This document shows positions 2,653 to 21,236 of a stretch of DNA of 21,236 nucleotides, piece after piece. The stretch covers positions 1-21,236 of the forward strand of contig PBAU01000004.1 of assembly GCA_002716355.1 (NCBI GenBank), written 5' to 3'. Position 1 is the stretch's first letter, and the number at the start of each line of letters is the position of its first letter. The notes beneath the pieces are model-generated. The model made no database searches, had not been told where the DNA came from, and saw only the letters and a program-made list of their open reading frames with translations. Made by a program: the position numbers and the translations under genes. Origin of the DNA: a bacterium (GTDB lineage Bacteria > UBP7 > UBA6624).

Positions 2653-2677
2653 ATTAGTATTATAAAATAAAAATAAA

Positions 2678-3463
2678 ATGAAAAAATATGTTGTAGCAGG
2701 TTTAGGTGAAATTGGAACTCCAATATCCAAATTATTATCTAAAAAACACAATGTAATTGGTTATGATAAAAATCCTAAATTAATGAATATAAATAAATTT
2801 AATAAATCTGAATCAATACCAACTTCCTTTTTGCACATAGCAATTCCAGTCAATAAAAATTTTGATTCAAATATTTTAAAACTGAATAAAAAATTTCTAC
2901 CTGAATGTATTGTGATTCATAGTACTATTAGCCCTGGAACTACTCAAAGAATTCAAAAAAAATTATCGATCCCATTAATTTTTAGTGCAACTAGGGGTGT
3001 TCATAAAAGAATGTTAAAAGATCTTCAAAGATATACCAAATTCTTTGCAATATCATCATCTGCTCCAAGAAAACAATGGGCAATTAAAGAATTTAAAAAA
3101 CAAATGAAAAATTGTGGAATAAAAACTAAACAAATGTCAAAACCTGAAGCTTTAGAATTAGGCAAAATTATTTGTGATACTTCTTATTTGGGTTGGTTGA
3201 TAAATTACTCACAAATCAGTAATACAATTGCTAAATCTTATGGAGTTGATTATGATGAAATGTGGGAATTTTCTGATGAAATTCACAAAATTCTAGGAAA
3301 TCGTCCTAAATTATATCCTGGTTTCATAGGTGGTCACTGTGTGATTCCTAATCTAGAATTAATTCACAATGAAACTCTTGATATAATAAATTCTCTAAAT
3401 AATTCATATCTAAAAAAAGTAAAAAATGCAAAATCCATAAATAAAAAATATCTAAAAAAGTGA
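2678..3463 (+). CDS. Short NAD(P)-binding Rossmann protein resembling the N-terminal and central parts of the UDP-glucose/GDP-mannose dehydrogenase family (no C-terminal sugar-nucleotide domain)
   Basis: 261-aa ORF with ATG at 2678. GxGxxG at the extreme N-terminus (VVAGLGEIGTPI). HSTISPGTT resembles the ESTV(P)PGTT family motif (compare ESTIEPGF in the 84-1454 product). GFIGGHCVIPN resembles the catalytic GGxC(L/I)P motif. The gene call is solid; the function is tentative. Confidence 0.5.
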   Translation: MKKYVVAGLGEIGTPISKLLSKKHNVIGYDKNPKLMNINKFNKSESIPTSFLHIAIPVNKNFDSNILKLNKKFLPECIVIHSTISPGTTQRIQKKLSIPLIFSATRGVHKRMLKDLQRYTKFFAISSSAPRKQWAIKEFKKQMKNCGIKTKQMSKPEALELGKIICDTSYLGWLINYSQISNTIAKSYGVDYDEMWEFSDEIHKILGNRPKLYPGFIGGHCVIPNLELIHNETLDIINSLNNSYLKKVKNAKSINKKYLKK

Positions 3464-4648: not shown

Positions 4649-5713
4649 ATGAAATACAAAAAAATGATATTTTTACCTGTAATTATAGGAATTTCCTTAA
4701 GTATTGTATTATATCTGTCACAATCTTCACAAGATCATTCTGAGGAAATTGATGTTAATTCATTAATTGATATTGAAACCTCTCAAGATATTGAATCCAA
4801 AAAAATAATGTTAGAAAGTTACATTTGGAAAGATGATCAAACTTTTAAATCAAAACTACCTTCAGATGTTCAATATTTTTATACTGATAAAAAATTTGAT
4901 GATTTCCAAAATGTAGAACGAATTGATCGAATTTATGTAAAAATGAATTATGATGTAGACTCTACTGCATACATGTTTTTTCCAAAAAACCCCAATAATG
5001 AATTATTAATTTATCATCAAGGTCATAGAGGTGATATTACATTTGGTAAATCTACAATAGAATTCTTTTTGAACAAGGGTTACACAATACTTGCATTCTC
5101 GATGCCATTAATTGGTGAAAATTCAAAACCAATTGTTCATATTGATGAATTAGACGAAAATTTATTTTTAGACAGTCATGACAAATTGAGATTTTTAGAA
5201 AGTAGTACTTTTTCACCAATTAAATTTTTTCTAGAACCTATCTATGTGTCATTAAATTACATTGAATCTGAATTTAACTTTAGTTCTTATAATTTCATTG
5301 GAATATCTGGAGGTGGTTGGACTGCAGTTGTATACTCTTCATTTGACGACCGGATTTCTAAAACAATTTCAGTAGCAGGCTCTCTCCCATTCTATTTGAG
5401 AACTAGTCCTGAAAATTTTGGCGATTATGAACAAAAAATTCCTGAATTTTATGATATTGCTAACTACCTTGAATTGTATATAATGTCTGCATATGGTTTT
5501 GATCGTGGTCTTTTACAAATATTTAATGAATTTGATCCATGTTGTTTTTCTGGAACTGAATATGTAAGCTATGAAAATATTATAAAAAATAAAATTTCTA
5601 AATTAAAATCAGGAACTTTTAAAATTGAACTAGATAAAACTAACAAGGAACATTCTATATCTTCTTCTTCTTTACAAAAATCATTAATTTTTCTAAAAAA
5701 CTCAATTGATTAA
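4649..5713 (+). CDS. Membrane-anchored (N-terminal TM/signal anchor) alpha/beta-hydrolase-like serine hydrolase, possible carbohydrate esterase
   Basis: 354-aa ORF with ATG at 4649. Hydrophobic N-terminal helix MIFLPVIIGISLSIVLYL. GxSxG nucleophile elbow in NFIGISGGGWTAVVY. Upstream IYHQGHRGD may be an oxyanion-hole region. I cannot assign the acid and His of the triad by eye, so the fold call is tentative. Confidence 0.5.
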   Translation: MKYKKMIFLPVIIGISLSIVLYLSQSSQDHSEEIDVNSLIDIETSQDIESKKIMLESYIWKDDQTFKSKLPSDVQYFYTDKKFDDFQNVERIDRIYVKMNYDVDSTAYMFFPKNPNNELLIYHQGHRGDITFGKSTIEFFLNKGYTILAFSMPLIGENSKPIVHIDELDENLFLDSHDKLRFLESSTFSPIKFFLEPIYVSLNYIESEFNFSSYNFIGISGGGWTAVVYSSFDDRISKTISVAGSLPFYLRTSPENFGDYEQKIPEFYDIANYLELYIMSAYGFDRGLLQIFNEFDPCCFSGTEYVSYENIIKNKISKLKSGTFKIELDKTNKEHSISSSSLQKSLIFLKNSID

Positions 5714-5714
5714 A

Positions 5715-6650
5715 ATGAAATTTGATAATAGACTGATATGGATTATAGTGGCCTCTGTTGGCTTATATGGTGTTTTTTTGTTTTTCTCTGATTTTAATCA
5801 AATCTCTCAACAAATTTCTATTTTCAAATATGAATTTCTTCCACTAATTCTAGCTCTTGTATCTATCTCTTGGATTCCGTTATTGGTTAGATGGCAATTT
5901 TTACTTAAAAAAAATAAAATAAACATTCCAACAAAAAATAGTTTTTTAATTTTCTTAGGTGGAATCTCGATGGCTATAACTCCAGGGCATGTTGGAGAAT
6001 TAATCAAATCACAATTGATCAAAAATAATTATAATATTCCAAGAACTAAAACTGCTCCAATTATATTCATAGAAAAATTCTATGATCTCACTGGTGCAAT
6101 CATAGCATCAATTATTGGTATTATAATATTAGAAATGGATACAAATCTAATAATTTTTTCAATACTCGTATTATCTGTAATCATTTTTCTCATTTTTTAT
6201 AAACCGATTTTTGAATTTTTACTAAAAAGAATTTCAAAAACAAAATTATTTTCAAAATATTCTGATAACATTGTAGAATCTTATGAAATTATTCGAAATT
6301 CAACCACCACCAAAACTGCTTCTATATCATTTGGATTATCAATACTTTATTGGATAATAATTTCCATAGCAGTTTATTTCATTTTACTATCATTTGGTAT
6401 TGAATCTGTTTCTCTTCTCAGAACGATTTCCATTTATTCTTCATCTGTGATAATAGGTGCATTGTCATTTATTCCAGGTGGCATTGGAGTAACTGAAGGT
6501 TCTCTTATTGGATTATTTTCTTTAGAGGGTATTGAAATTTCAATGGCAATTTTCCTTAGTGTGATGATCAGAATATTCACTATGTGGTATTCTGTCTGTA
6601 TTGGATTTATTTGTCTAAAATTCACTGGTGGTTTATCAAAAATCAAATAA
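5715..6650 (+). CDS. Polytopic membrane protein, UPF0104 / lysylphosphatidylglycerol-synthase TM-region (flippase-like) family
   Basis: About 8 predicted TM helices. C-terminal PGGIGVTEGSL motif is typical of the LPG_synthase_TM/UPF0104 family. ATG at 5715 lies 1 nt after the upstream stop (5711-5713). The ORF track extends to a TTG at 5706, which is an alternative start with an 8-nt overlap. Confidence 0.65.
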   Translation: MKFDNRLIWIIVASVGLYGVFLFFSDFNQISQQISIFKYEFLPLILALVSISWIPLLVRWQFLLKKNKINIPTKNSFLIFLGGISMAITPGHVGELIKSQLIKNNYNIPRTKTAPIIFIEKFYDLTGAIIASIIGIIILEMDTNLIIFSILVLSVIIFLIFYKPIFEFLLKRISKTKLFSKYSDNIVESYEIIRNSTTTKTASISFGLSILYWIIISIAVYFILLSFGIESVSLLRTISIYSSSVIIGALSFIPGGIGVTEGSLIGLFSLEGIEISMAIFLSVMIRIFTMWYSVCIGFICLKFTGGLSKIK

Positions 6651-9821: not shown

Positions 9822-10514
9822 TTGTCAACTGCAGTACTAATACTCACATTAAACGAAATTGATGGAATAAAGGTAATTTTACCTAAAATTGATAAATCTT
9901 GGGCAGAAGAAATAGTTGTTATTGATGGAGGTTCTACAGATGGAACTATTGAAGAAGCAAAAAAAATGGGTTTTAAGGTAATCGTACAAAAAAAACGTGG
10001 ACATGGTGATGCTATTGTAACTGGTGTTAATGCAACATCATCTGATAATATTGTAATTTTTGGCCCCGATGGGAATCATGAACCTGAAGAAATTCCAAGA
10101 TTAATAAAAAAAATAGAGGATGGTTTCGATCAAGTATTAATATCTAGATTTGGTAAAGGTTCAAAAAATTATGATGCAGTTGGAGTGAAAGGAAAATTAA
10201 TTGATTATTTTGGAAATAAAATGTTTGCATTTCTTGTCAATGTTTTTTTTGGTGGTCATTGGACTGATAGCTTAAATGAAAGTAGAATAATTTCAAGAAA
10301 AGCATTTTTTGATCTAGATTTTGATTCGTTACAAATGGGTTCAACACAATTAATGAGTATTAGAGGACTAAAGAAAAAACAAAAGATATGTGAATTAGTT
10401 GGGAATGAAGGTGCTCGTATTGGTGGTAAAAGGAAAATGCGTCCATTACATGTTGGTGCTGATCTTAGTAGACAAATATTATCTGAATTTTATTTTTGGT
10501 GTAAGAAAAAATGA
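9822..10514 (+). CDS. Glycosyltransferase family 2 (GT-A fold), soluble/peripheral, no TM helices
   Basis: 230-aa ORF with TTG start at 9822. AVLILTLNE...IVVIDGGSTDGTIEEAKKMG is the canonical GT2 N-terminal nucleotide-binding region. FGPDGNHEPEE sits in the DxD position. Its stop overlaps the next start (ATGA at 10511-10514). Confidence 0.75.
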   Translation: MSTAVLILTLNEIDGIKVILPKIDKSWAEEIVVIDGGSTDGTIEEAKKMGFKVIVQKKRGHGDAIVTGVNATSSDNIVIFGPDGNHEPEEIPRLIKKIEDGFDQVLISRFGKGSKNYDAVGVKGKLIDYFGNKMFAFLVNVFFGGHWTDSLNESRIISRKAFFDLDFDSLQMGSTQLMSIRGLKKKQKICELVGNEGARIGGKRKMRPLHVGADLSRQILSEFYFWCKKK

Positions 10515-11218
10515 AAACTGATGATTATGAATTTTATAAAGATTCTTTTGATATATTAGATAATAATTATGCTTTATGGATGAAAGAGAAAACTAATTTA
10601 TTGATTAAATTATTTGAAGGAAAAAAAATTGTTGAAGTTGGATGTGGAAATGGCTTATTATTAAAAAATTTTCCGAGAGATAAATTTGATTTTACAGGAA
10701 TTGATTTTTCAAAAGGCAATCTTCAACATGCAAAGAAAAAAAATCCTGATCTAAATTTTTTTCAAGCAGATCTTACAAAAAAATCTTCATGGAATGAACA
10801 TGAAAATAAATTTGATACTGTGCTTTGTTCAGAAGTACTAGAACATATTGAGGATGATGGTCTTGCGTTGACAATTTTAAATTCATTATTAAAAACAAAT
10901 GGTACGTTAGTTGTTACTGTTCCTGCATTTCCATTACTTTTGTCAAAATTTGACATAAAAGAGGGACATGTTCGTAGATATACAAAAAATTCTATATCTG
11001 AAATTGTAACTAACGCTGGCTTTATGATTGAAGAAATTAGATTTTGGAATGTCTTTGGTTTTTTTGGTTGGTTACTTTTTTTCAAAATTCTTAATCGTGG
11101 ATTTGAAGAATCCACTAATTCGTTTCTTTCTTCGTTAATGGGTAATTTTCTTAAAATTGAATCAAAGATAAAATTCCCTTTCGGACAGACAATTATCTTA
11201 AAAGCACGGAAATTATAA
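10511..11218 (+). CDS. Class I SAM-dependent methyltransferase
   Basis: 235-aa ORF with ATG at 10511. Motif I VEVGCGNGLLL, acidic loop GIDFS, motif CSEVLEHIEDD, post-III VVTVP. Hydrophobic C-terminal segment FWNVFGFFGWLLFFKIL may be a membrane-association helix. Translationally coupled to the GT2 gene. Confidence 0.8.
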   Translation: MKTDDYEFYKDSFDILDNNYALWMKEKTNLLIKLFEGKKIVEVGCGNGLLLKNFPRDKFDFTGIDFSKGNLQHAKKKNPDLNFFQADLTKKSSWNEHENKFDTVLCSEVLEHIEDDGLALTILNSLLKTNGTLVVTVPAFPLLLSKFDIKEGHVRRYTKNSISEIVTNAGFMIEEIRFWNVFGFFGWLLFFKILNRGFEESTNSFLSSLMGNFLKIESKIKFPFGQTIILKARKL

Positions 11219-11240
11219 TCAATGAAAAAATGTTCTCTAA

Positions 11241-11250
11241 TTTAAATAGG
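11241..11250 (+). promoter_or_regulatory. Candidate internal TATA box upstream of the GT-C gene
   Basis: TTTAAATAGG, centred about 26 nt upstream of the GTG at 11271, within the 52-nt gap after the methyltransferase gene. Confidence 0.3.
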
Positions 11251-11270
11251 AATCTAAAATGTGAATCAAC

Positions 11271-12920
11271 GTGTTAGTATCAGATCAGTCAATAAATTTC
11301 TCAAAAAAGAAAATTCTTTCAATATTGGTAATAGTTATGATAATTTCTTTAGGTTTCAAATTATACCTTATAGATTTCTCTTCACTACCTGTTGAAGATA
11401 CATATGGTTATGTGATTCGTGCCATTGCTCATACAAATGGAGATTTTTCTGAAAATGAACGAAAAACTTTGGGTTGGTCGATATTTCTTTCACCATTCAT
11501 GTTACTTTTGGATTCAACTGAACCATTAGATTACATCAATGCAGCTCGAATACTGAGTATTATTGTTTCAACGGTAACCATCTATCCCATGTATCTATTA
11601 GCAAGAAAATTCTTCAATGAAAAATTTTCTATTGCTGCATCTTGTTTGTTTGCATTTCAACCTCATCTAAATTATAATTCTGTACAGGGAATATCTGAAC
11701 CATTATTTATTCTTCTTTCAATTTTAAGTTTTTATTTCATATTGCATCAAGATAATAGAATAAAATATGTGGCATTTCTTACTGCAGGACTAATGTTCTG
11801 GGTAAGATTCAATGGTATTATCGTTTTAATTATTATTTCAATTTTATATTTCTACAATAGTAATTATTCAAAAAAACAAATTTCAAAATTTCTTCTTGCA
11901 TTATTTATTTTTATTCTTGTGCTTAGTCCAACTCTAATTCAACGGTATGATCAATTTGGTGATCCTCTCTATTTTTCTCAATCAAATACTATATTCTTAG
12001 AAAATTATGTTTCAGTTGTTGCAGAAAATACTGATATGGAAAATTATACTGCGTCAGATTATATTGAAGATAATGGAATTTTATCATTTTTTAATAAATT
12101 TGTGCTAAATGGTATTTTTAACATTGCACAATCAATCTATAAAATATTATTTCCTTACATGATTGTCTTATTCCCTATCGGAGTTTTCTTCTCTATTCGT
12201 GCATTTGATCAATCAAAAAAATTTCTTAAAAGTAATTGGATATGGATTTTTGCGTCACTAGGTGTATTTCTCATATATTTTTCAATTGTACCTGAAAAAA
12301 GATTATTGTACTTTCTTATACCTAATTTGATACTATTTTCAGTTATTCCTATTGAGCGATTAATAAAATATGGATTGAGTACATTTTCATTTAACAGAAA
12401 TCAAAAAAATATCTCATTCATAATTGTAATCTTAATAATATTGGTATTGTCTATTGTTTATACTTCTTATTATGAACTAACAGATAAAAAAACTGAAAAT
12501 GAGAAATTATTATTTTCTGAAATAATTAATAAAAAATTAAATGGAAAAATACTTGATGCTGGTTATACATTACAAAGTCTCATGTATGTTTCTTTGAATG
12601 AACCTGATAGTAATTTTAAAGAATTTGGTATATCTAAGAATGTTAACGATTGGTGGATTGGAACAAAAAATCTCAATGTAATCAATTTGTATGCAACTGA
12701 TTTTGAAAATTTTATTTTAGTTTCACAAGAAAATAATCTAAATTATCTATCAATAAATAAAGATGGAGTTAATATGGAATGGTATCCTTACTTAGAAGAT
12801 GTTTATGATAATGAAAATGATTTTCCTCAACTCAAAAAAATTTTTGATTCACAAGAGAATGGATTTGAAAATTTTCATGTAAAAATATTTGAAATACGTA
12901 ATGATGATTTTAAACCTTAA
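11271..12920 (+). CDS. GT-C fold membrane glycosyltransferase (ArnT/PMT_2-like, polyprenyl-phosphate-sugar dependent) with C-terminal extracytoplasmic domain
   Basis: 549-aa ORF with GTG at 11271. More than 10 predicted TM helices. Acidic motif in the first loop (LPVEDTYGY). Core segment ARILSIIVSTVTIYPMYLLARKFFNEKFSIAASCLFAFQPHL...SEPLF is typical of the PMT_2/ArnT family. A soluble tail of about 145 aa follows the last TM. Paralogous to the 14999-16621 product. Confidence 0.7.
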   Translation: MLVSDQSINFSKKKILSILVIVMIISLGFKLYLIDFSSLPVEDTYGYVIRAIAHTNGDFSENERKTLGWSIFLSPFMLLLDSTEPLDYINAARILSIIVSTVTIYPMYLLARKFFNEKFSIAASCLFAFQPHLNYNSVQGISEPLFILLSILSFYFILHQDNRIKYVAFLTAGLMFWVRFNGIIVLIIISILYFYNSNYSKKQISKFLLALFIFILVLSPTLIQRYDQFGDPLYFSQSNTIFLENYVSVVAENTDMENYTASDYIEDNGILSFFNKFVLNGIFNIAQSIYKILFPYMIVLFPIGVFFSIRAFDQSKKFLKSNWIWIFASLGVFLIYFSIVPEKRLLYFLIPNLILFSVIPIERLIKYGLSTFSFNRNQKNISFIIVILIILVLSIVYTSYYELTDKKTENEKLLFSEIINKKLNGKILDAGYTLQSLMYVSLNEPDSNFKEFGISKNVNDWWIGTKNLNVINLYATDFENFILVSQENNLNYLSINKDGVNMEWYPYLEDVYDNENDFPQLKKIFDSQENGFENFHVKIFEIRNDDFKP

Positions 12921-12946
12921 TTTCATTTATTATTAAAAATCTGTAA

Positions 12947-14938
12947 TTATATTCCCATTGTTGAATGTGTTGATTCAAAACTTTTTCCATCATTTTTATC
13001 TGAATTTCTGTCAACACGTGTATTGTCTATTCTTAGATTTTCAGGGTGACATTTGTAATCACGTGAACGTCTACCATACCAGATTGTTTTATAGCCCCAT
13101 TTTATGGGGTCCGTCTCGTCAATTGGATTTTTATAATTATATGTGGTCTTTTTTCCTATTAAACTAGAATTTTCTTCAGTGAAAAACTTTTTCCAATCAA
13201 ACTCAAAATCTGAAGTTTTTATTTCATCATTATAATCTCGCGTAGTAAGAATGAAAACCTGAAATTTAGCTAAATCTCTTAGTACATTTTCTGACTCGTT
13301 TAATCCACATTCTTTATCAACATAAGTAAGTAAATTAAAAATTGCATCTTGCAGTACATCTTTATCTCTTGTTAATCGTAACCAACTTGCTTCTTCAATT
13401 GGCCAAATTATATCTCCTAGATCTGCATCGTGATGATCCCATCCCTTTCCTGAATATCCATTATCTCTAAATTCAATGACTTTGTTTAATTCATCATTTA
13501 AAATTGAATCAGATTTTCGTGCATATTCTAAAAATTTTTCATAGAATGTAACAAATTGTAAATTATGTGTTTTATTAAAATAACTTGTAACATATTCTAA
13601 AATTCCGAGACTTTGTAATGTTAAAAATGACCACGAATAAAGATAAATTTCTTTTAATTCATCTAAAGAACACATATTATTTTCTGTAGCCAGATATTCA
13701 AATTCTTGAATCCCTCTATTATGAATTGAAGAATGAACTAACATTATTGGGGATTTCACCAATTTTATTCCATATTTTTCTCTGTATTCTGGAACATTCA
13801 TTGGTGCATTTGGCAGAACACTACAATGATAAATAAAAACTGTATCGATTTTTGTATGTGCAATATTTTCTAATCCTTGTTTAAATGTCTCTAGCGTTTC
13901 ACCTGGAAGTCCCATAATTAATTCAGTATATGTTGGAATATTATTTTCCCTAAACGTTGCTGTTAATTCTCCAAATGAATCAAATTTAATATTTGCTCGT
14001 TTCATAATGTTTAATGTATTAGTATCAAGTGATTGTACAGCTAGAGTAACTGCACCTAATACTCCACCTTCTTGTAACTCTTTTGCAATTGGAATGATTC
14101 TATCTGATGAATTCTTTGCCCATGCTGGTCTAATTCTTTCTGGAAAATGTTTTTTTAATGCAACCTCTTTTAATTTTTGTGCAATTTTAAAATCTCTTTC
14201 TTGAAAAATTCCGAAATTTGCATCACAACAATCTATGTATGGTATTTTATTATCGCCAAACCACTCGATTTCTTGAAATAATTTTGATTCTTCCCATTTT
14301 CTAACTCTGCTTTTTGTTGCACTTCCCCAGTCACAAAATGTACATTGATATGGACAACCTCTATTAGTTTCCCACGAAGAAATCCATTTTATTCCATCTA
14401 TTTTATCAACTAGTTCCCAAACTGTATTTGTTAAATATGGTGATGGTAGTTCATCTAAGTTACTAATTCTTTCTTGTGGCGCTGTTCTGAAATCTTTTGT
14501 TTCTATACCTTTAATTTGTGAATAATTTTTGTCTTTCAAATATGCAATAAGAATTTCTTCAAATACATATTCTCCTTCACCGTGGACAATTATATCCACA
14601 AAAGGATTTTCTTTAAAAAAATCTGGAGATAAATCTGGTATCTGTGGTCCGCCAAAAATTATAGTACATTCTGGATTTATCTTTTTTATTTCTCGTGCAA
14701 GATATGTTGTAATTTCCCAATTCCAAACATAACAAGAACAAAGCAAAATATCACTATTCTTACATTCTTGAATGTAATCCTCAACCTTATTTCTAAATAC
14801 AAAACTTTTCTCAAAACTAAAATTTGATGCTAATTCAGGTTTAGACTTGATATATGCTACAAGGGTTGCTATACTATATGGAAAATGAATCTGATCTCCA
14901 TATTGATAATTAAATTGTGAACTGTTAACTTTTATCAT
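12947..14938 (-). CDS. Class B (B12-binding domain) radical SAM enzyme with long C-terminal extension
   Basis: 663-aa ORF with ATG at 14936-14938. N-terminal cobalamin-binding-like Rossmann region (DILLCSCYVWNW...TIIFGGPQIPD...IIVHGEGEYVFEEIL). Radical SAM cluster motif NRGCPYQCTFCDWG, with Cys195/199/202 codons at 14354-14356, 14342-14344 and 14333-14335. I do not recognise the roughly 250 residues after the TIM-barrel core. Confidence 0.85.
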   Translation of the reverse strand: MIKVNSSQFNYQYGDQIHFPYSIATLVAYIKSKPELASNFSFEKSFVFRNKVEDYIQECKNSDILLCSCYVWNWEITTYLAREIKKINPECTIIFGGPQIPDLSPDFFKENPFVDIIVHGEGEYVFEEILIAYLKDKNYSQIKGIETKDFRTAPQERISNLDELPSPYLTNTVWELVDKIDGIKWISSWETNRGCPYQCTFCDWGSATKSRVRKWEESKLFQEIEWFGDNKIPYIDCCDANFGIFQERDFKIAQKLKEVALKKHFPERIRPAWAKNSSDRIIPIAKELQEGGVLGAVTLAVQSLDTNTLNIMKRANIKFDSFGELTATFRENNIPTYTELIMGLPGETLETFKQGLENIAHTKIDTVFIYHCSVLPNAPMNVPEYREKYGIKLVKSPIMLVHSSIHNRGIQEFEYLATENNMCSLDELKEIYLYSWSFLTLQSLGILEYVTSYFNKTHNLQFVTFYEKFLEYARKSDSILNDELNKVIEFRDNGYSGKGWDHHDADLGDIIWPIEEASWLRLTRDKDVLQDAIFNLLTYVDKECGLNESENVLRDLAKFQVFILTTRDYNDEIKTSDFEFDWKKFFTEENSSLIGKKTTYNYKNPIDETDPIKWGYKTIWYGRRSRDYKCHPENLRIDNTRVDRNSDKNDGKSFESTHSTMGI

Positions 14939-14953
14939 ATAATCTGGACCTCA

Positions 14954-14970
14954 AATTTATAATTTATAAT
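14954..14970 (-). promoter_or_regulatory. Candidate TATA box for the radical SAM gene
   Basis: The minus strand reads ATTATAAATTATAAATT (plus strand AATTTAT repeated about 2.4 times), centred about 24 nt upstream of the ATG at 14938. Confidence 0.35.
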
Positions 14971-14998
14971 TTTCATATAATTTATTACTAAATTTCCT

Positions 14999-16621
14999 TT
15001 ATTTTGTTAAATTATCAAATTTCTCATAGTCAATCTTGAATATTTTAACATGGTAACTGAATTTATCTTCTTTTGAGTCATAGACTATTTCTAAAAATGG
15101 ATATTTATGTTCATTTTCTCTAATATCTTTGATAAATTCTGGTCTATTTGGATTATCATCTACTAACAAATATTCTAAATTCTCATCTCTTGCATTATTT
15201 AGAAATTCATTTAATGATCTTGCCTCATAACAACTATCACATCCAATTGTTATTCCTCCACTTGCACCCTGAATTACTTCTATCTGGTTGGGGATATCAG
15301 CAAATAATACAGGAAATTTATCTAGAATTGTTGCTTCTATAATTTTTCCACTAACATAAACTGATTCAGGATCATAATCATTAATTACATTTGTCATCTC
15401 GCTTATTTTTATTCCAATTTTATATGCTTCAATTTCTCGTTCATAATCAATTTTTTTATATTCCAAAAAAATAATTGAGGTAAGAATTATCCCAACAATC
15501 AACAAACCAATTAACAAATTATCTTTTTTTATTTTTCTTGTTATACTCTCAATAAAAGACAGTGAAATCAAAATTAAAATTGGTACAGTTATGAACAAAT
15601 ATTTCACTTCAGAAAATTCTCTCGAAAATGCATAAAATGCTGGAATTATCATTATAATACTAAAAATAAAAATTATCTTTCTATCTGAATTAAAATTTTT
15701 AAAAAATAAAATTAAACCACCAGGAATAAAAAATAATAAGTATGGAATCATTAACCAACCAAATAATTTAACCATGTTTAACATTCCTTTAGTAATCTTT
15801 GTTAGAAAATTATCCTTTGTATCAAACATTGCGTTAGTAACTGGGTCAGATTGATAGAATGTTGACTGTGATATAATATGACTAAATATCCCATCATTGC
15901 CTGTAACTTCTATTCTTAATCCCATTGCAGGAAGTAATATCAGAATAAAAACACCTAGTGCAACAAAATATTTTGGAATATCTTTCTTATGATCTTTAAA
16001 TCTGAAAAATAATAAAATAAAGAAAGGAACAATTAGTAAAATCCCTTCATATCTAATTAATGATAATAATGCTAGTAATCCAAATGAAAGATAAATCATC
16101 TTAAATTTTTTTGATAAAAATAGGTAAACACTAAATGTAAATAGAAAAATAAAAATGGATTCTGGTAACCCTGAAATTGAATTTATCAATAATCTTGGTT
16201 CAAAAACAAAGATACATGCACCAATTAATGCAATTTTGGTCTTAAAAAACCGTTTAGATAATAAGAAAATAGGAATTATTGTAGCAGCTGAAAAAATTAT
16301 AGATGTTAATCTTTGTATAATATGGAAATCTATGAATGTATCTGGATTTGTTATGTTGAAGATTACAGATAAGAATACTGGCCAACCATTATTTGGGAAG
16401 TTATAACCTCTTGGTAATTCTCCTAGAATGCTTGTATCTACTGCATACCAAAAATATAACGAACCATCTAAAGTTATTGGTAATTCAAAAGATGTATAGT
16501 AAATTCTGATAATTATTCCAGCTGTGAATAATAAAATTAATTGAATTCTTATATCCAAAAATATTCTTGAAAAATTACTTTCTTTCGTAGAAGTGAGATC
16601 TTTTTCCATATCTTTATTCAA
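14999..16621 (-). CDS. GT-C fold membrane glycosyltransferase (ArnT/PMT_2-like), paralogue of the 11271-12920 product
   Basis: 540-aa ORF with TTG at 16619-16621 (alternative ATG at 16607-16609). Multi-TM. Core segment QRLTSIIFSAATIIPIFLLSKRFFKTKIALIGACIFVFEPRL...PESIF aligns with the other GT-C. The C-terminal soluble domain ends YPFLEIVYDSKEDKFSYHVKIFKIDY, compared with FPQLKKIFDSQENGFENFHVKIFEIRN in the paralogue. Confidence 0.7.
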   Translation of the reverse strand: MNKDMEKDLTSTKESNFSRIFLDIRIQLILLFTAGIIIRIYYTSFELPITLDGSLYFWYAVDTSILGELPRGYNFPNNGWPVFLSVIFNITNPDTFIDFHIIQRLTSIIFSAATIIPIFLLSKRFFKTKIALIGACIFVFEPRLLINSISGLPESIFIFLFTFSVYLFLSKKFKMIYLSFGLLALLSLIRYEGILLIVPFFILLFFRFKDHKKDIPKYFVALGVFILILLPAMGLRIEVTGNDGIFSHIISQSTFYQSDPVTNAMFDTKDNFLTKITKGMLNMVKLFGWLMIPYLLFFIPGGLILFFKNFNSDRKIIFIFSIIMIIPAFYAFSREFSEVKYLFITVPILILISLSFIESITRKIKKDNLLIGLLIVGIILTSIIFLEYKKIDYEREIEAYKIGIKISEMTNVINDYDPESVYVSGKIIEATILDKFPVLFADIPNQIEVIQGASGGITIGCDSCYEARSLNEFLNNARDENLEYLLVDDNPNRPEFIKDIRENEHKYPFLEIVYDSKEDKFSYHVKIFKIDYEKFDNLTK

Positions 16622-16672
16622 TTTAATAAAAATCCATTTTTCTTCCTAATGAAGGAAACTGATGTTTTATCA

Positions 16673-18145
16673 CTAAAATTCAAAGTAAATAAATTCCTCT
16701 GCACTTCCTCTGTAAAATAAAACTACTAAAAGCATGATGATAGTCAAGAAAATTAACCAATGTTTTACTTGTAATGATGAAATTCTTTCACTCACATTTT
16801 TAATTTTTAATGTAATAATTTGTAATATAAGAAAAATAGGAATTAGTATCACTGCAAATTCATTTTGTTGGATAAAATTAATTGTACCATCTATCTCGAA
16901 ATCCCAAATCAAATATTTCTTCATTGAATAAACCATCTCATCAACATCTCTTACTCTAAACGAGATAAATGCAAAAAATATTAAAAACTGTGTTATTAGA
17001 ATACTAGTTATTTTTCCAATTTTTGTTTTAAAGAATTTATTCTTACTAAAATTTGGGAATTGTTTTCTAACCAAAGTATCTACTGCAACATAGATTCCAT
17101 GAATTATACCAAAAATTATAAAATTCCATCCTGCACCATGCCATAAACCTAGTAAAAAGAATGACGTAAATAAACTAGAGAATAATCTTTGTGACGATTT
17201 CCTATTTTTAAAAATTAATGGAAAATAAAGATAATCTCTAACCCATGTTGACAGGCTAATGTGCCATCTTCTCCAAAAATCTGATGGAGATGTAGAAAAA
17301 AATGGTTTTCTAAAATTCGGTGGAACATTTATTCCAATTATTAGTGCTGCTCCAATTGCTATGTCAGAGTATCCTGAAAAGTCTCCATATACTTGAAAAC
17401 CAAATCCAATTGTACCTAAAATAATTGTAAATGACTCATGTCCTATTGGACTATTGAATACATTATCTACCATTGGAGCAATATTATCTGCAAAAAATAA
17501 TTTTTTTAGAAAACCAATTGCCATCATTGTGATTCCTAATTTTAAATTCCTATTATTGATGAAAAATTGTTTTAGTTTAATTTGTGATTTAAGATTTGAA
17601 ATTTTTTCATTTAGTTGCGGTAAAAAATCACTTGCACGTAATATTGGTCCAGCAACTAAGGTCGGAAAAAATGCTACAAATAATCCATATTGTAAAATAG
17701 ATCGGGTTGGTTTTAATGAACCCCTGTAAATATCAATTATATAACTAATTGACTGGAAAGTATAGAATGAAATTCCTATAGGTAAAATTAAATTCAAAAA
17801 TGGGATCTCTGTAAATCCTAAAACTCCAAAAAGTTCATTAATTTGTGAAATTGCAAAGTCTGTGTATTTAAAAAAACCAAGTAAACCTAAACTTCCGCCT
17901 ATTCCAATACCTAACAGAATTTTTCTATTCTTAGGATCTGTTGATTCTGCTATCTTTTTACCTATGAAGTAATGCAAAATTGTTGTATAAACTAATAATA
18001 AAACTAAGTAGCTATCTGAAAAGTATAGAAAGAAAAAACTAGCAACTACTAATAGCGTATGTTGGAATTTTCGATTTTTATAACACACTATAGCTGTTAA
18101 AACAGCTATAAAGAATACGATGAACTCTACCGTTGTAAATAGCAT
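16673..18145 (-). CDS. MBOAT family membrane-bound O-acyltransferase (AlgI/DltB/PatA-like)
   Basis: 490-aa polytopic ORF with ATG at 18143-18145. Both family histidine motifs are present: DFWRRWHISLSTWVRDYLYFPL (His295, nt 17261-17263) and LLGLWHGAGWNF (His336, nt 17138-17140). Also ISFYTFQSISYIIDIYRG and FFPTLVAGPI, typical of AlgI/DltB. Confidence 0.9.
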   Translation of the reverse strand: MLFTTVEFIVFFIAVLTAIVCYKNRKFQHTLLVVASFFFLYFSDSYLVLLLVYTTILHYFIGKKIAESTDPKNRKILLGIGIGGSLGLLGFFKYTDFAISQINELFGVLGFTEIPFLNLILPIGISFYTFQSISYIIDIYRGSLKPTRSILQYGLFVAFFPTLVAGPILRASDFLPQLNEKISNLKSQIKLKQFFINNRNLKLGITMMAIGFLKKLFFADNIAPMVDNVFNSPIGHESFTIILGTIGFGFQVYGDFSGYSDIAIGAALIIGINVPPNFRKPFFSTSPSDFWRRWHISLSTWVRDYLYFPLIFKNRKSSQRLFSSLFTSFFLLGLWHGAGWNFIIFGIIHGIYVAVDTLVRKQFPNFSKNKFFKTKIGKITSILITQFLIFFAFISFRVRDVDEMVYSMKKYLIWDFEIDGTINFIQQNEFAVILIPIFLILQIITLKIKNVSERISSLQVKHWLIFLTIIMLLVVLFYRGSAEEFIYFEF

Positions 18146-19104
18146 TATTCTTTTAACTCCTTAATCATCCATTCTTTGATATCATCTGTGTAGATCTGTG
18201 CATTTCTATTAATTGCAACATGATATGGGTCACTCCAAATCTCATTCTCAGCATATTTGTCGTGTAAATATAATATGTCAATATCAAATCTCTGAGAAAT
18301 ATTATCTATTATTTTCTCAAAATTCTCAATCTCACTCTGTTTCACATGTTCAAAAACTAATTCATTGTAAGGTGGTGTGAAAATCAAAACTTTAATTCCA
18401 TTTGATTGAAATGTTTCAATAATTTTGTTTACAGCTAAAAATTCACTGTTTTCAATATCATTATCAATTCCTCTGAATCCTACACCTTCTCCGTAAATAG
18501 ATTTAATCTCATCTTGAGAAAGAATATTGTTTTCTCTGTAATTCATAAATGGATGAGTTGGATAATCTGGTCCTCTCAAAATATATTTGATTGATTGTAT
18601 CATTCTATCTTTTGGTGAAGTTGGAAATTTTTCAGAAAAATCTAAATTAAATATTGAGGATAAGAAATTTACAAAAAATTTGTCAGGCTCTACGATATTT
18701 CCAAATAACCCTCTATTGAAAAACTCACTTCTATAATCTCTTGATTTCTCAAAATCTGTCATACTTATTCCATAAATAATGACTTTTGGTTCTAGTTCTA
18801 CTAAGTGCATCATACTATTCACTCTTCTAGTAGGTGTATCGCTCATATCTGCTAAATTATAAATCTCATAGTCTAATTGATTCATTATCAATTCATCTGA
18901 AATTCTATCCACATCTATTGAATAGACATTACTGGCACCTATGAAAAAAATTGATTCTTTTTTAATGATCTCTTTCTCTGAAAAAATACCATTCCATTCT
19001 GGATCATAAATGTGAAGATATAGATCCATAAATAAATAAAATATTCCACCTGTAAAACAAAATGCAACAAGTAATGCTAAAAGAATTTTAAAATTCAAAT
19101 CCAT
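18145..19104 (-). CDS. Membrane-anchored extracytoplasmic partner of the MBOAT; DltD/AlgJ-like SGNH-type acyl-transfer protein (tentative)
   Basis: 319-aa ORF with ATG at 19102-19104. Single N-terminal TM (ILLALLVAFCFTGGIFYLF). FFIGASNVY (Ser58) near the N-terminus and WSDPYHVA (Asp292-x-x-His295) near the C-terminus match SGNH block I and block V spacing. Its stop overlaps the MBOAT start by 1 nt (TAATG at 18143-18147). A GAGG lies about 8 nt upstream of the ATG. Confidence 0.55.
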   Translation of the reverse strand: MDLNFKILLALLVAFCFTGGIFYLFMDLYLHIYDPEWNGIFSEKEIIKKESIFFIGASNVYSIDVDRISDELIMNQLDYEIYNLADMSDTPTRRVNSMMHLVELEPKVIIYGISMTDFEKSRDYRSEFFNRGLFGNIVEPDKFFVNFLSSIFNLDFSEKFPTSPKDRMIQSIKYILRGPDYPTHPFMNYRENNILSQDEIKSIYGEGVGFRGIDNDIENSEFLAVNKIIETFQSNGIKVLIFTPPYNELVFEHVKQSEIENFEKIIDNISQRFDIDILYLHDKYAENEIWSDPYHVAINRNAQIYTDDIKEWMIKELKE

Positions 19105-19117
19105 TTAGGCCTCTATT

Positions 19118-20002
19118 TTATTTATTATTTTCACGAACAACATTAACTAAACTATATAGTAAAATTGCAGATATGAGAAATATCACTGCAATTAAAATTG
19201 TACCTGCAGCAACTACTGTCAAATTAGTATTTAATCTACCAATTTCTGCATAATACTGTATTGAAAAATATGTAAAAGCTATTCCTACAATGAAAAATAT
19301 TACTGATGGTATCCCATAGAATTTTAATGGATGTTCAATAGATGTATATTTTATTGTACTAAAGATCACTGATGAACCATGCGTTACAGGATTCTGTGTA
19401 GATGTATCTCCTTCATACAAAATTTTAATTGGAACTTCTGAAATTTTAAAATTCTTGCTACTTGCTTTAATTAAAATTTCAGTTGATATTCCCATACCTA
19501 ACTCAGATGGATTTAATTCATCAACAACTTGTTTTGAATAAGCTCTAAACCCACTTTGTGAATCAGTTAATTTCTCTTTTATACTTGCGTTTGTTATCTT
19601 TGTAATTACTTTAATTCCAACTCTTCTATAATTGGGTACTTCTTTCTCACTATCATCTAAAAATCTTGAACCTACAACTAAATCAGCATCTTGATTATTT
19701 ATTGGTTCTATAACTTTTTGAACATCTTCGATTCTATGTTGTCCATCAGCATCAAATGTTACTAAAATATCACCTTCGATATTTTTAGCCTTTGTAAAAA
19801 TACTTCTAATTGCTCCGCCATACCCTAAATTTTTTTCATGGTTAACCACTATTGCTCCCATTTTTTCAGCTATCTGTGATGTCAAATCCGTTGAACCATC
19901 ATTGCACACTATCACCTTATCTGCAATTTTTGATAATTTTGTAATGATTGTTGCAATGTTTTTTTCTTCATTAAATGCCGGAATTCCTACAATTATCTTC
20001 AA
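19118..20002 (-). CDS. GT2 polyprenyl(dolichyl)-phosphate sugar synthase type glycosyltransferase (GtrB/ArnC/DPM1-like) with two C-terminal TM helices
   Basis: 294-aa ORF. TTG at 20000-20002 gives a canonical MKIIVGIPAFNEEKNI N-terminus. VIVCNDGSTDLT, FDADGQH (DxD) and GFRAY motifs. Two C-terminal TM helices (GIPSVIFFIVGIAFTYFSI; VVAAGTILIAVIFLISAILLYSL), as in GtrB/ArnC-type enzymes. Confidence 0.85.
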   Translation of the reverse strand: MKIIVGIPAFNEEKNIATIITKLSKIADKVIVCNDGSTDLTSQIAEKMGAIVVNHEKNLGYGGAIRSIFTKAKNIEGDILVTFDADGQHRIEDVQKVIEPINNQDADLVVGSRFLDDSEKEVPNYRRVGIKVITKITNASIKEKLTDSQSGFRAYSKQVVDELNPSELGMGISTEILIKASSKNFKISEVPIKILYEGDTSTQNPVTHGSSVIFSTIKYTSIEHPLKFYGIPSVIFFIVGIAFTYFSIQYYAEIGRLNTNLTVVAAGTILIAVIFLISAILLYSLVNVVRENNK

Positions 20003-20107
20003 TTTTTAACCTTGTGACTGATTTCAAATTTTAGCCTATAAAATATACTACTCAAAGTTTTTCTGTTTTTTTGAAATTTTTATGATATATTCATTCATTT
20101 GAATAGA

Positions 20108-20120
20108 AAATATAATTAAA
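20108..20120 (+). promoter_or_regulatory. Candidate TATA box for the 2,3-dehydratase/oxidoreductase unit
   Basis: AAATATAATTAAA, centred about 27 nt upstream of the GTG at 20141. It lies in the 138-nt divergent intergenic region shared with the GT2 gene. The minus strand has TAAAATTT and TATATTTTATAGG about 27 and 39 nt upstream of 20002. Confidence 0.3.
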
Positions 20121-20140
20121 GAACCTGTTGAAGATTTCTC

Positions 20141-20890
20141 GTGTTAGTTGATGAAATTAAAGCAATATTGGAAAAAAATGATTATGAGCTAGATCCTGAT
20201 GGAATATCACGAATTCAAACCATGTTAGAATCAATAAGGGATGATAATCAAATAAACAAACTTGACTTCATAATTAACTGGTTTAATAAAAAACGTGAAG
20301 AATCTGATATGGTTGTTGAAGAAATTGGAATTAAAGAATTAGATAAATGGAATGTTGATCATAATTCAGGAAATATTTTTCATGAATCGGGAGGATTCTT
20401 TAGAATCATAGGAATCAAAGCTTCAAATACATTTGATCGTGAAGTTGGCAAGAAAGGATGGACTCAACCAATGATTGCAAAAAACCCTGGAGGGATATTA
20501 GGAATTATCATGAAAAGAATCAATGGCATTCCTCATTATCTTCTACAAGCAAAGGCAGAACCTGGTAACATTGGAAAATTACAATTATCTCCAACACTTC
20601 AAGCAACAACAAGTAATTTGTTAAAAGCTCATGGTGGCGCAAAACCATTATTTGCAGAATATTTTAATGAAGAAAATAATCCAAAAATCATCTATGCAAA
20701 ATGGCAATCAGAAGATGGTGGTAGATTTCATTTAAAATCAAATTATAATATGATTGTAGAAGTAAAAAGTGATGAAGAATTAGAAATTCCAGATTCATTC
20801 ATTTGGGTTACATTATATCAGATAAAACAATTAATGAAGATTGAAAATGTTGTTGGACCACATGTAAGAGGAATTATTTCTTATCTGTGA
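20141..20890 (+). CDS. NDP-hexose 2,3-dehydratase family protein (Hexose_dehydrat / EvaA-like), single-domain half-size form
   Basis: 249-aa ORF with GTG at 20141. Strong family pattern: GGFFRIIGIKA...REV..KGWTQPMI...GGILGII...GIPHYLLQAKAEPGNIGKLQLSPTLQATTSNLLKAHGG..PLFAEYF...WQSEDGGRFHLKSNYNMIVEV...IPDSFIWVTLYQIKQLM...NVVGPHVRGIISYL. Only one such domain is present; characterised enzymes carry two. Confidence 0.8.
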   Translation: MLVDEIKAILEKNDYELDPDGISRIQTMLESIRDDNQINKLDFIINWFNKKREESDMVVEEIGIKELDKWNVDHNSGNIFHESGGFFRIIGIKASNTFDREVGKKGWTQPMIAKNPGGILGIIMKRINGIPHYLLQAKAEPGNIGKLQLSPTLQATTSNLLKAHGGAKPLFAEYFNEENNPKIIYAKWQSEDGGRFHLKSNYNMIVEVKSDEELEIPDSFIWVTLYQIKQLMKIENVVGPHVRGIISYL

Positions 20891-20893
20891 AAA

Positions 20894-21236
20894 ATGAATC
20901 CTCTAAAATTTGGTATTATTGGTTGTTCCCGAATTGCAAAACGTTCAGTAATTCCTGCTATCATAAAATCAGAATTTGCAGAACTTGAAATAATTGGTAG
21001 TCGTTCAACAGACAAAGCAAAAGAATTTGCTAGTGAGTTTAACTGTGAAAAATTTGGTACTTATGAAGATGTCATATCCGATGACTCAGTTGATGCCGTA
21101 TACATCTCAACTCCAATTGGTACCCATGAAGAATGGTCAATCAAAGCATCAGAGGCAGGTAAGCATGTTTACGTTGAAAAATCTAGTGCAGTAAATTTTG
21201 ATTCAGCGCAAAAAATGGTTGAATCTGCAAAAGAAA
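20894..21236 (+). CDS. Gfo/Idh/MocA family NAD(P)-dependent oxidoreductase (candidate NDP-hexose 3-ketoreductase), 3'-truncated by the window edge
   Basis: Not in the ORF track because no stop is reached. ATG at 20894, 4 nt after the dehydratase stop. My own translation: MNPLKFGIIGCSRIAKRSVIPAIIKSEFAELEIIGSRSTDKAKEFASEFNCEKFGTYEDVISDDSVDAVYISTPIGTHEEWSIKASEAGKHVYVEKSSAVNFDSAQKMVESAKE. Family motifs GIIGCSRIA, VDAVYISTP..HEEW and AGKHVYVEK(P/S). Confidence 0.8.
   Translation, partial: MNPLKFGIIGCSRIAKRSVIPAIIKSEFAELEIIGSRSTDKAKEFASEFNCEKFGTYEDVISDDSVDAVYISTPIGTHEEWSIKASEAGKHVYVEKSSAVNFDSAQKMVESAKE

Follow-up and report, generated by a model that had tools for sequence, protein, structure and literature searches.

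The closest described relatives of the locus reported here are of two kinds. In the first, represented by PatA/PatB and by the Dlt system, a membrane-bound O-acyltransferase (MBOAT) works with an SGNH-type partner, and the acyl group is relayed through a short motif, FxYxxF, which is the acyl shuttle of both PatA and DltX (PMC12148441). PatA auto-acetylates the tyrosine of this motif from acetyl-CoA, and PatB accepts an acetyl-tyrosine peptide as donor. MBOATs with the fused motif carry two extra transmembrane (TM) helices that are absent from DltB, which has no shuttle motif and borrows that of DltX (PMC12148441). In the second kind, represented by AglD/AglR/AglS of Haloferax volcanii (PMC3871713), a lipid-linked sugar is made by a GT2 glycosyltransferase and used on the outer face of the membrane by a GT-C-fold enzyme. 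Here we describe a locus in which genes of both kinds form one apparent operon. It lies on a stretch of 21,236 nt (GenBank assembly GCA_002716355.1, contig PBAU01000004.1, positions 1 to 21,236), hereafter called the window, which appears to come from a marine ammonia-oxidising archaeon. Archaea of the Nitrosopelagicus and Nitrosopumilus type are among the most abundant cells of the ocean, and their S-layer is thought to concentrate ammonium.

Organization of the operon

The operon is formed by a block of four co-directional open reading frames (ORFs) on the minus strand, which is followed by a fifth:

19118..20002, minus strand: GT2 glycosyltransferase of the polyprenyl/dolichyl-phosphate-sugar synthase type, 294 aa (Pfam Glycos_transf_2, TM scan)
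18145..19104, minus strand: predicted membrane-anchored SGNH/DltD-fold acyltransferase partner, 319 aa (AlphaFold2 (AF2) model and Foldseek)
16673..18145, minus strand: MBOAT of the bacterial type with His295 and His336, 490 aa (Pfam MBOAT)
16676..16693, minus strand: codons of the C-terminal hexapeptide FIYFEF of the MBOAT, with the Tyr487 codon at 16685-16687 (read from the sequence)
14999..16621, minus strand: GT-C-fold glycosyltransferase, PMT_2/GT39-like, 540 aa from a TTG start (Pfam PMT_2, AF2 and Foldseek)
12947..14938, minus strand: B12-binding radical SAM protein (B12-rSAM) of the KedN5-family C-methyltransferase type (Radical_SAM and B12-binding domains)

The ORF calls confirm the coordinates of the four genes from GT2 to GT-C given in an initial annotation of the window, and its three junctions were confirmed by reading the sequence. 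The GT2 stop is separated by 13 nt from the partner's ATG at 19104, and a GAGG begins 9 nt and ends 5 nt upstream of this ATG. At 18145 the stop of the partner gene and the start of the MBOAT gene overlap by 1 nt (TAATG). The gap from MBOAT to GT-C measures 51 nt, or 63 nt if GT-C begins at the ATG at 16609, which is the start in public gene calls (536 aa) and the likely one. All motifs quoted in that annotation were also found, namely AFNEE, DGSTD and DADGQH in GT2, GAS and DPYH in the partner, and WRRWH and WHGA in the MBOAT, and a hydropathy scan bears out the topologies that it gives. Its limit of the operon at four genes is probably too narrow. The B12-rSAM gene is co-directional, is preceded by a GAGG and starts 60 nt past the GT-C stop, and is a probable fifth member; its product scores 292.8 bits with the NCBIfam KedN5 family (cut-off 700).

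For comparison, about 70 related loci (numbered with the prefix L) from genome and metagenome collections were examined by tblastn. The window clade comprises the 13 loci whose partner is at least 58% identical (58-73%). A B12-rSAM gene also follows GT-C in at least ten of the related loci (L027, L029, L030, L033, L035, L036, L039, L042, L044 and L063).

The MBOAT and its fused shuttle motif

The MBOAT matches Pfam PF03062 with 109.8 bits (cut-off 27, E 2.2e-31) and has at least 8 TM helices in a hydropathy scan. Both family histidines are present in the motifs WRRWH (residues 291-295) and WHGA (335-338), which align to WNRWHMS and FWHG of DltB. Among the best 120 of at least 8000 scored homologue candidates, WRRWH is kept in 109 and WHGA in 117. 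Most of these 120 are about 57-60% identical, and all 8000 scored candidates pass E ≤ 1e-20. The gene is very common in Nitrosopelagicus- and Nitrosopumilus-type archaea.

The nearest NCBIfam family is the DltB model TIGR04091 (174.1 bits, cut-off 375), and the protein aligns to solved DltB at 1.8e-28 over both histidine motifs. It is about 100 aa longer than DltB at the C-terminus, where TM segments 430-448 and 460-478 lie outside the DltB-aligned core. The chain ends in FIYFEF, and an F-x-Y-x-x-F at the exact C-terminus is found in 118 of the same 120 homologues. Because of this fused motif and the C-terminal extension with its two TM segments, the MBOAT is assigned from its sequence to the PatA/AlgI architectural type and not to the DltB type. 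True orthology to DltB and DltD was considered and ruled out: both proteins fall below the equivalog cut-offs, the window has no DltA-, DltC- or DltX-like ORF, and its intergenic gaps leave too little room for one.

The SGNH/DltD-fold partner

The partner has a single N-terminal TM helix (hydropathy scan). A fold search was used for this protein because its sequence profile returned only a weak GDSL-lipase match (9e-4) against PDB chain sequences. With the AF2 model (pLDDT 83.6, pTM 0.78), the six best Foldseek matches in the PDB are DltD structures (including 6o93, 6pfx, 7dxm and 3bma; E 1.8e-5 to 4.6e-5), all with a probability of 1.0; their TM scores (0.41-0.48) are modest, and the next matches are SGNH esterases and PatB. 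In the model, the first strand, at residues 50-56, leads into G56-A-S58, and D292-x-x-H295 lies ahead of the last helix, as expected of blocks I and V in the SGNH superfamily; the codons of Ser58, Asp292 and His295 are at 18931-18933, 18229-18231 and 18220-18222, respectively.

Of 45 close homologues, 26 were aligned with the window protein; Ser58 and His295 do not vary in this set, and Asp292 hardly does. When 1.84 billion representative sequences were searched with a profile, 691 family members emerged, from which residues were counted in 148 at 20-41% identity. Ser58 is present in all 148 and Gly56 and His295 in 147 each; Asn83 (141), Asp89 (140) and Tyr111-Gly112 (142) are further conserved. 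A non-SGNH fold is therefore set aside on the DltD fold match and the near-universal Ser58 and His295, as the initial annotation had anticipated, and the partner is modelled as an SGNH/DltD-fold protein with Ser58, His295 and Asp292 as the candidate triad.

Within this superfamily, the sequence places the partner outside the PatB/DUF459, AlgX and DHHW families, apparently in a DUF1574/'LB_356'/DltD-like branch. DUF1574 is catalogued as an SGNH family of unknown function. PF27429 ('LB_356') is listed as a precomputed 'faint' match for the partner and as a plain match for many homologues. The DltD model TIGR04092 gives 17.2 bits (cut-off 150), and the DltD match spans the C-terminal 80 residues only.

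The two glycosyltransferases

GT2 matches Pfam Glycos_transf_2 (PF00535) with 93.6 bits (1.7e-26), has the DAD motif at residues 93-95 and ends in two TM helices (226-244 and 263-281). Its NCBIfam matches all lie under the equivalog cut-offs: PpgS 159.5 bits (cut-off 370), AglJ 144.7 (325; full length) and Dol-P-hexose transferase 104.3 (375).

GT-C matches PMT_2 with 28.5 bits (cut-off 26.1, 2e-6), so that the family calls made earlier for both glycosyltransferases hold. The protein consists of about 10 TM helices and, at the C-terminus, a soluble tail of some 150 aa (hydropathy scan). Its AF2 model, built from 36 homologues (pLDDT 85, pTM 0.84), matches STT3/AglB/PglB, ALG9, ArnT, Pmt4 and AftA/B in Foldseek, with a probability of 1.0 for STT3, AglB, PglB, ALG9, ArnT and Pmt4. 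By its model it resembles the oligosaccharyltransferase (OST), ArnT, ALG9 and PMT folds about equally and falls into no single subfamily. Invariant residues among the 36 sequences include R35, P44, D48, Y52 and Y55, with D58 nearly invariant, and the first outer loop contains Asp48. Relatives appear in public records as 'glycosyltransferase family 39 protein [Nitrosopumilus sp.]' and '[Ca. Nitrosopelagicus sp.]'.

Proposed function

The observations behind the following scheme are the order of the genes, the folds, the residues of catalysis and shuttling, the archaeal origin and the synteny counts. The chemistry of each step, the membrane topology, donor and acceptor, and whether glycosylation precedes acylation are what we infer. 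We propose, with a probability of about 0.6, that the operon GT2 > SGNH partner > MBOAT > GT-C (> B12-rSAM) encodes two decoration steps at the outer face of the membrane, glycosylation and O-acylation. GT2 would load a hexose or N-acetylhexosamine onto dolichyl phosphate (Dol-P) at the cytoplasmic face, and the lipid-linked sugar would be flipped across the membrane by a flippase encoded outside this operon. GT-C would transfer the sugar to a surface acceptor via Asp48, following the logic of AglD/AglR/AglS or GtrB/GtrA/GtrC. The MBOAT would take an acyl group from a cytoplasmic thioester, and its His336 would move the group to Tyr487 of its own FIYFEF at the outer face. From there the group would pass to Ser58 of the SGNH partner, whose triad would also include His295 and Asp292, and the partner would esterify a hydroxyl of the surface glycan, as in the PatA/PatB and DltB-DltX-DltD relays. 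The B12-rSAM protein probably C-methylates a sugar. The acceptor would most likely be an S-layer-associated glycan or another envelope glycoconjugate.

Several points count against this proposal. The operon contains no Wzx- or GtrA-like gene, and tblastn with the Wzx sequences of relatives gave zero matches anywhere in the window. In Np. piranensis, N-glycosylation of the S-layer protein seems to be absent (PMC12153357). The Pfam matches of the partner are all below threshold (DUF1574, PF07611, 24.3 against 29.1 bits; DltD, PF04914, 20.4 against 22.7), and position 292 in the 148 counted homologues is Asp in 103, Asn in 28 and Glu in 5. Finally, a simple acetyl-CoA donor is at odds with a cassette for FkbH, a carrier protein, MaoC and AcpS, which stands beside the SGNH-MBOAT pair in 27 of 30 loci outside the window clade that have enough flank.

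A distant SGNH-MBOAT pair in L089 (1498-2928, 9001-11516) is accompanied by NeuB and CMP-sugar synthetase genes, which belong to nonulosonic acid synthesis, and by another B12-rSAM gene, with no FkbH cassette within 9 kb. After this context, O-acylated nonulosonic acids are a possible acceptor class.

The carrier-protein cassette and the acyl donor

It had been argued at first that an acetyl or other acyl donor was more likely than D-alanine, since no DltA/DltC-like ligase or carrier gene is present in the window. Carrier protein and loading enzyme are indeed absent from the window, but the argument is unsafe, given the cassette in other loci and in L023 of the window clade. The cassette encodes an FkbH-domain protein, one or two PP-binding carriers of 77-79 aa, a dehydratase of the MaoC type and a phosphopantetheinyl transferase of the AcpS type, to which some loci add an SDR or a glyoxalase-fold protein. 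FkbH scores 292 bits with TIGR01686 (cut-off 147) and the carrier 23 bits with PP-binding (cut-off 20.8); MaoC and ACPS are also above cut-off. Examples outside the window are:

L007:10455-13508: FkbH/carrier/MaoC/AcpS cassette
L008:10458-12866: FkbH/carrier/MaoC/AcpS cassette
L027:12467-15978: FkbH/carrier/MaoC/AcpS cassette
L023:534-3287: FkbH/carrier/MaoC/AcpS cassette

L023 is the sole window-clade contig that reaches far enough, and there the cassette lies about 4.9 kb past the dehydratase gene that neighbours the operon, beyond the end of the window. L033 is 95-99% identical to L023 in this region at the amino acid level and breaks off at a hexapeptide-transferase gene, the neighbour of FkbH in L023; it also carries a 261-aa protein of the window exactly. 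The window shares with L001, L024, L032 and L037 the gene order leading towards the cassette. The genome from which the window derives quite probably has it too; it would then lie about 5 kb past the right end of the window.

The cassette could serve a Dlt-like, carrier-dependent acylation of the surface glycan. FkbH would load a glyceryl group from 1,3-bisphosphoglycerate onto the AcpS-primed carrier, and MaoC, with the SDR where present, would turn this into the thioester of a pyruvoyl or lactyl group. As DltB draws on DltC, the MBOAT would draw on the carrier and relay the acyl group through Tyr487 and Ser58 to the glycan. This C3-acyl route is plausible because DH-KR proteins of polyketide pathways convert glyceryl-S-ACP to lactyl-S-ACP (PMC4765723) and because DltB, itself an MBOAT, is supplied by a carrier protein (PMC12148441).

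The arrangement of the genes speaks for such a route in many of the relatives. In ten loci (L008, L009, L027, L028, L038, L040, L048, L065, L066 and L072) the cassette is co-directional with the pair at a gap of about 50 nt, in the order partner-MBOAT-FkbH-ACP-MaoC-(SDR)-ACPS. In L067, L069 and L076 the cassette surrounds the pair: a divergent FkbH gene lies upstream, and ACP-MaoC comes straight after the MBOAT. However, the cassette is equally tied to a hexapeptide-repeat acyltransferase and NodB/DUF3473 deacetylase pair, which goes with the cassette in most loci, for example:

L023:3387-4785: hexapeptide transferase/deacetylase pair
L007:6477-7878: hexapeptide transferase/deacetylase pair
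L054:5368-6745: hexapeptide transferase/deacetylase pair

FkbH is the divergent neighbour of this second pair in L023, L044, L054, L056, L063 and L076, and where the cassette is parted from the MBOAT pair (L023/L033, L044 and L063) it stays with the hexapeptide transferase and deacetylase genes. These are a candidate alternative consumer of the acyl-carrier protein. Moreover, no cassette is found within a flank of 9-10 kb beside the SGNH-MBOAT pairs of L017, L042, L088 and L089, which is consistent with a CoA donor; L017 and L042 have neither the cassette nor the hexapeptide transferase/deacetylase pair. The MBOATs with a fused FxYxxF have so far been linked to acyl-CoA donors (PMC12148441). 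The literature search returned no paper on FkbH together with MBOAT or DltB, and nothing relevant on thaumarchaeal carrier proteins.

Since both links of the cassette are equally tight, gene neighbourhood does not separate the two donor hypotheses. We give acetyl-CoA or another acyl-CoA an even chance of being the donor. A carrier protein in this role is a tentative second choice, not far behind, and the Dlt-like route as a whole is graded likewise. Carrier proteins are unusual in archaea. A broader proposal, which we regard as somewhat more speculative still, is that marine ammonia-oxidising archaea run a Dlt-like pathway in which FkbH, a dedicated carrier and MaoC, joined in some loci by an SDR, supply C3 hydroxy- or oxo-acyl groups (glyceryl, pyruvoyl or lactyl); a fused-shuttle MBOAT and a DltD-fold SGNH protein would export these groups and ester-link them to the envelope, in genetic coupling to Dol-P-sugar/GT-C glycosylation. 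If true, archaea would gain their first MBOAT-SGNH system and a function to which a carrier protein is dedicated, and a carrier would for the first time serve a fused-shuttle MBOAT; the link to FkbH and a carrier would give the MBOAT class a new donor chemistry.

Conservation of the gene order

The partner is followed by the MBOAT in 56 of the 57 loci with enough room, and this part of the expected synteny stands. The four-gene order is not a general archaeal arrangement: the series GT2-partner-MBOAT-GT-C(-rSAM) is seen only in the window clade. GT2 lies directly upstream of the pair in 10/10 window-clade loci and in 0/35 of the other relatives, and GT-C directly downstream in 8/8 and 2/34, respectively. 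In the Nitrosopelagicus-type loci L022, L007, L047, L061 and L086, a Wzx-like Polysacc_synt gene occupies the slot between GT2 and GT-C. Since the same slot of relatives holds this gene, the SGNH-MBOAT pair appears to have replaced a flippase gene in the window clade.

The identity between the window and L033 is a mosaic, with 98% for the rSAM protein, 77% for GT-C, 79% for the MBOAT, 60% for the partner, 79% for GT2 and 87% for the dehydratase. Among the loci of the window clade, divergence is fastest in the outward-facing partner and in GT-C (12947-20890 compared with L033, L029, L036 and L024). This mosaic pattern suggests recombination together with diversifying pressure on the acceptor-facing proteins.

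These features of a shuffled, hypervariable island would also fit an arrangement without functional meaning, in which the four genes are mere neighbours and the two pairs act on different targets: the order is specific to one clade, the two flanking adjacencies are absent or rare elsewhere, the sequences are mosaic against L033, and a flippase gene fills the same slot in relatives. Two observations make this explanation unlikely. The tight junctions (13 nt, 1-nt overlap and 51-63 nt) are preserved in the 13 window-clade loci, whose partners are only 58-73% identical. In addition, other clades join the same genes independently. The pair lies directly before GT-C-rSAM in L042 and L063 and before GT2-GT-C-rSAM in L044, L027, L039 and L040, and in all six of these loci the pair and the GT2/GT-C genes form one co-directional block. 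Because other clades also place the pair before GT-C or GT2-GT-C, the two modules seem to associate repeatedly, in line with a joint role in glycosylation and O-acylation.

Origin of the contig

The proteins of the window (MBG98053-MBG98064) are labelled '[bacterium]' at NCBI. At the nucleotide level, window positions 19117-21236 are 84% identical to L022, a 90.8-kb Tara contig, and L022 is in turn 80-92% identical over 6.7 kb to L008, a contig of a Ca. Nitrosopelagicus single-cell genome (SAG). GT2 shares 84% of its residues with the GT2 of L022 and 70% with that of the Nitrosopelagicus SAG locus L007. A UDP-sugar dehydrogenase (UGDH), an asparagine-synthase-like protein (AsnS) and a GT4 glycosyltransferase of the window are 62%, 54% and 51% identical to proteins encoded in the same local order on a 618-kb contig of a Thermoproteota metagenome-assembled genome (MAG). 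GC content is 27-28% in the window and in these loci.

Those relatives of the partner, MBOAT and GT-C that carry an organism name are assigned to Nitrosopumilaceae, Nitrosopelagicus, Nitrosotenuis or Thermoproteota; only the window MAG itself and L009 (PBOA01000028.1), filed under 'Chloroflexota bacterium SP196', depart from this. The proteins of L009 are about 80% identical to those of the Nitrosopelagicus SAG, so this contig looks mis-binned, and both labels are probably binning or labelling errors. One distant relative's contig encodes fibrillarin. The public contigs of this lineage (at most about 27.4 kb) do not reach marker genes; they end about 0.5 kb into the GFO/IDH/MocA oxidoreductase gene or add only further sugar genes on the left.

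A bacterial contig with a routine cell-wall or exopolysaccharide modification locus, as the NCBI names and the typically bacterial distribution of MBOAT/SGNH families would have it, is highly improbable and was rejected on the nucleotide identity chain through L022 to the single-cell genome and on the thaumarchaeal names of the relatives, with the 70% identity of GT2 to L007, the UGDH/AsnS/GT4 synteny, the GC content and the archaeal Dol-P types as best GT2 families pointing the same way. The archaeal origin assumed in the initial annotation is thereby upheld and narrowed to the Nitrosopumilaceae type. A large flexible glycosylation island, with its function stated as unknown, has been described in N. 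brevis and N. catalinensis, and it is the largest flexible genomic island of these archaea (bioRxiv 10.1101/2024.04.23.590705). From its gene content, the window is read as part of such a cell-surface glycosylation island in a Nitrosopelagicus-like marine ammonia-oxidising archaeon.

Other features of the window

The operon is flanked by the following features:

20003..20140, no strand: AT-rich divergent intergenic region between the GT2 gene and the NDP-hexose 2,3-dehydratase gene (sequence reading)
20141..20890, plus strand: NDP-hexose 2,3-dehydratase gene (Hexose_dehydrat, 3.6e-64)
from 20891: GFO/IDH/MocA oxidoreductase gene after the dehydratase gene, start only
9822..12920, plus strand: second module of GT2, SAM methyltransferase and paralogous GT-C (Pfam matches)

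Promoters are presumably located in 20003..20140, where a TATA-like TATATTTTATAGG is found about 35-45 nt upstream of the GT2 start. Scans of 12800-20300 for sigma-70 promoters and intrinsic terminators gave results no better than shuffled sequence, and tRNA and Rfam scans of the window gave zero matches. The dehydratase gene is a conserved anchor beside the variable operon, its product being 87-90% identical in L022, L023, L024 and L033.

The second module consists of a GT2 without TM helices (9822-10514, 230 aa), a SAM methyltransferase (10511-11218) and a paralogous GT-C (11271-12920, 549 aa). It converges on the first operon, and both GT-Cs end in a similar soluble domain with the sequence '...HVKIF(E/K)I...'. 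A second GT2/GT-C module beside the first implies two lipid-linked-sugar/GT-C modules in the island. The same GT2b/GT-C2 pair stands opposite GT-C/rSAM in L029, L033, L036, L042, L044, L063 and L022.

Further genes lie on the left side of the window. Positions 4649-5713 encode a TM-anchored 354-aa protein with a GISGGG (GxSxG) motif and a weak alpha/beta-hydrolase match. The start of the next gene, which is of the LPG_synthase_TM type (MprF-type membrane domain; 5706-6650), falls within this gene. The first product could be an esterase that faces outwards, and the second a candidate lipid flippase. At 1444-3463, the UDP-sugar dehydrogenase gene is followed by that of the asparagine-synthase-like PP-loop protein, a pair also present in L017 and L088 and possibly responsible for a uronamide-forming step. 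The 261-aa Rossmann-like protein encoded after the PP-loop gene has no family match above threshold. Two adjacent nucleotidyltransferase genes are found in L008:3739-6458 and L022:17804-20528, one with a weak IspD/cytidylyltransferase-type match; this is a hint that the Nitrosopelagicus island makes use of a polyol or sugar in CDP-activated form.

Comparison with known systems

In the literature searched, no paper describes an archaeal MBOAT/SGNH system and none pairs MBOAT with Nitrosopumilus; a survey of LPLATs reported no candidates of the AGPAT or MBOAT family in the archaeal genomes examined. Homologues already carry such names in archaeal MAGs at NCBI ('MBOAT family protein [Thermoproteota archaeon]' and 'DltD [Nitrosopumilaceae archaeon]'). 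The lack of a characterised archaeal MBOAT/DltD system noted in the initial annotation thus holds for the searched literature and not for the annotation of its genes. If esterification at the outer face were shown, the MBOAT-Tyr-shuttle-SGNH mechanism would be extended beyond bacteria, and labile O-acyl groups would provide a chemical handle for S-layer glycoproteomics. It would also help to explain the strain-level surface diversity of these archaea, which may relate to virus pressure.

The window pair is most like PatA/PatB, AlgI/AlgJ-AlgX and PatA1/PatB1 of B. cereus. In common with them, it has an MBOAT that keeps the conserved histidine, is extended at the C-terminus by two TM helices and ends in FxYxxF; a separate membrane-anchored SGNH transferase with a candidate Ser/His(/Asp) triad is encoded alongside. 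No DltX microprotein is needed. By contrast, its host is an archaeon without murein or alginate, and its partner lies outside the families of PatB, AlgX and the DHHW proteins. The pair sits between a Dol-P-sugar synthase and a GT-C, and its relatives are usually linked to the carrier-protein cassette, whereas PatAB loci are not.

The likeness to the Dlt system (DltA-DltB-DltC-DltD(-DltX)) lies in the MBOAT, which aligns best to DltB, in the partner, whose closest solved folds are DltD, and in the small PP-binding carrier and AcpS beside the pair in relatives. It ends at several points. The relatives have an FkbH loader and MaoC in place of the adenylating ligase DltA, the shuttle is fused to the MBOAT and not placed on DltX, there is no teichoic acid, the carrier gene is not in the window, and both proteins score under the equivalog cut-offs. 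The FkbH, carrier, dehydratase and occasional SDR of the relatives recall instead the FkbH/ACP/DH-KR lactyl-S-ACP route of FR901464 and lankacidin (PMC4765723), but as stand-alone archaeal genes in a glycan locus, outside the window and with no polyketide synthase.

The glycosyltransferases follow the pattern of AglD/AglR/AglS, GtrB/GtrA/GtrC, CsbB/GtcA/YfhO and ArnC/ArnT, in which a GT2 charges polyprenyl phosphate and, once the product has been flipped, a GT-C passes the sugar on outside the membrane. The AglD/AglR/AglS system (PMC3871713) matches the GT2-Wzx-GT-C order of the relatives, whereas in the window the flippase slot is filled by the SGNH-MBOAT pair. Both modules belong to well-understood kinds; what is new is a predicted archaeal fused-shuttle MBOAT-SGNH system inserted in a Dol-P-sugar/GT-C operon.

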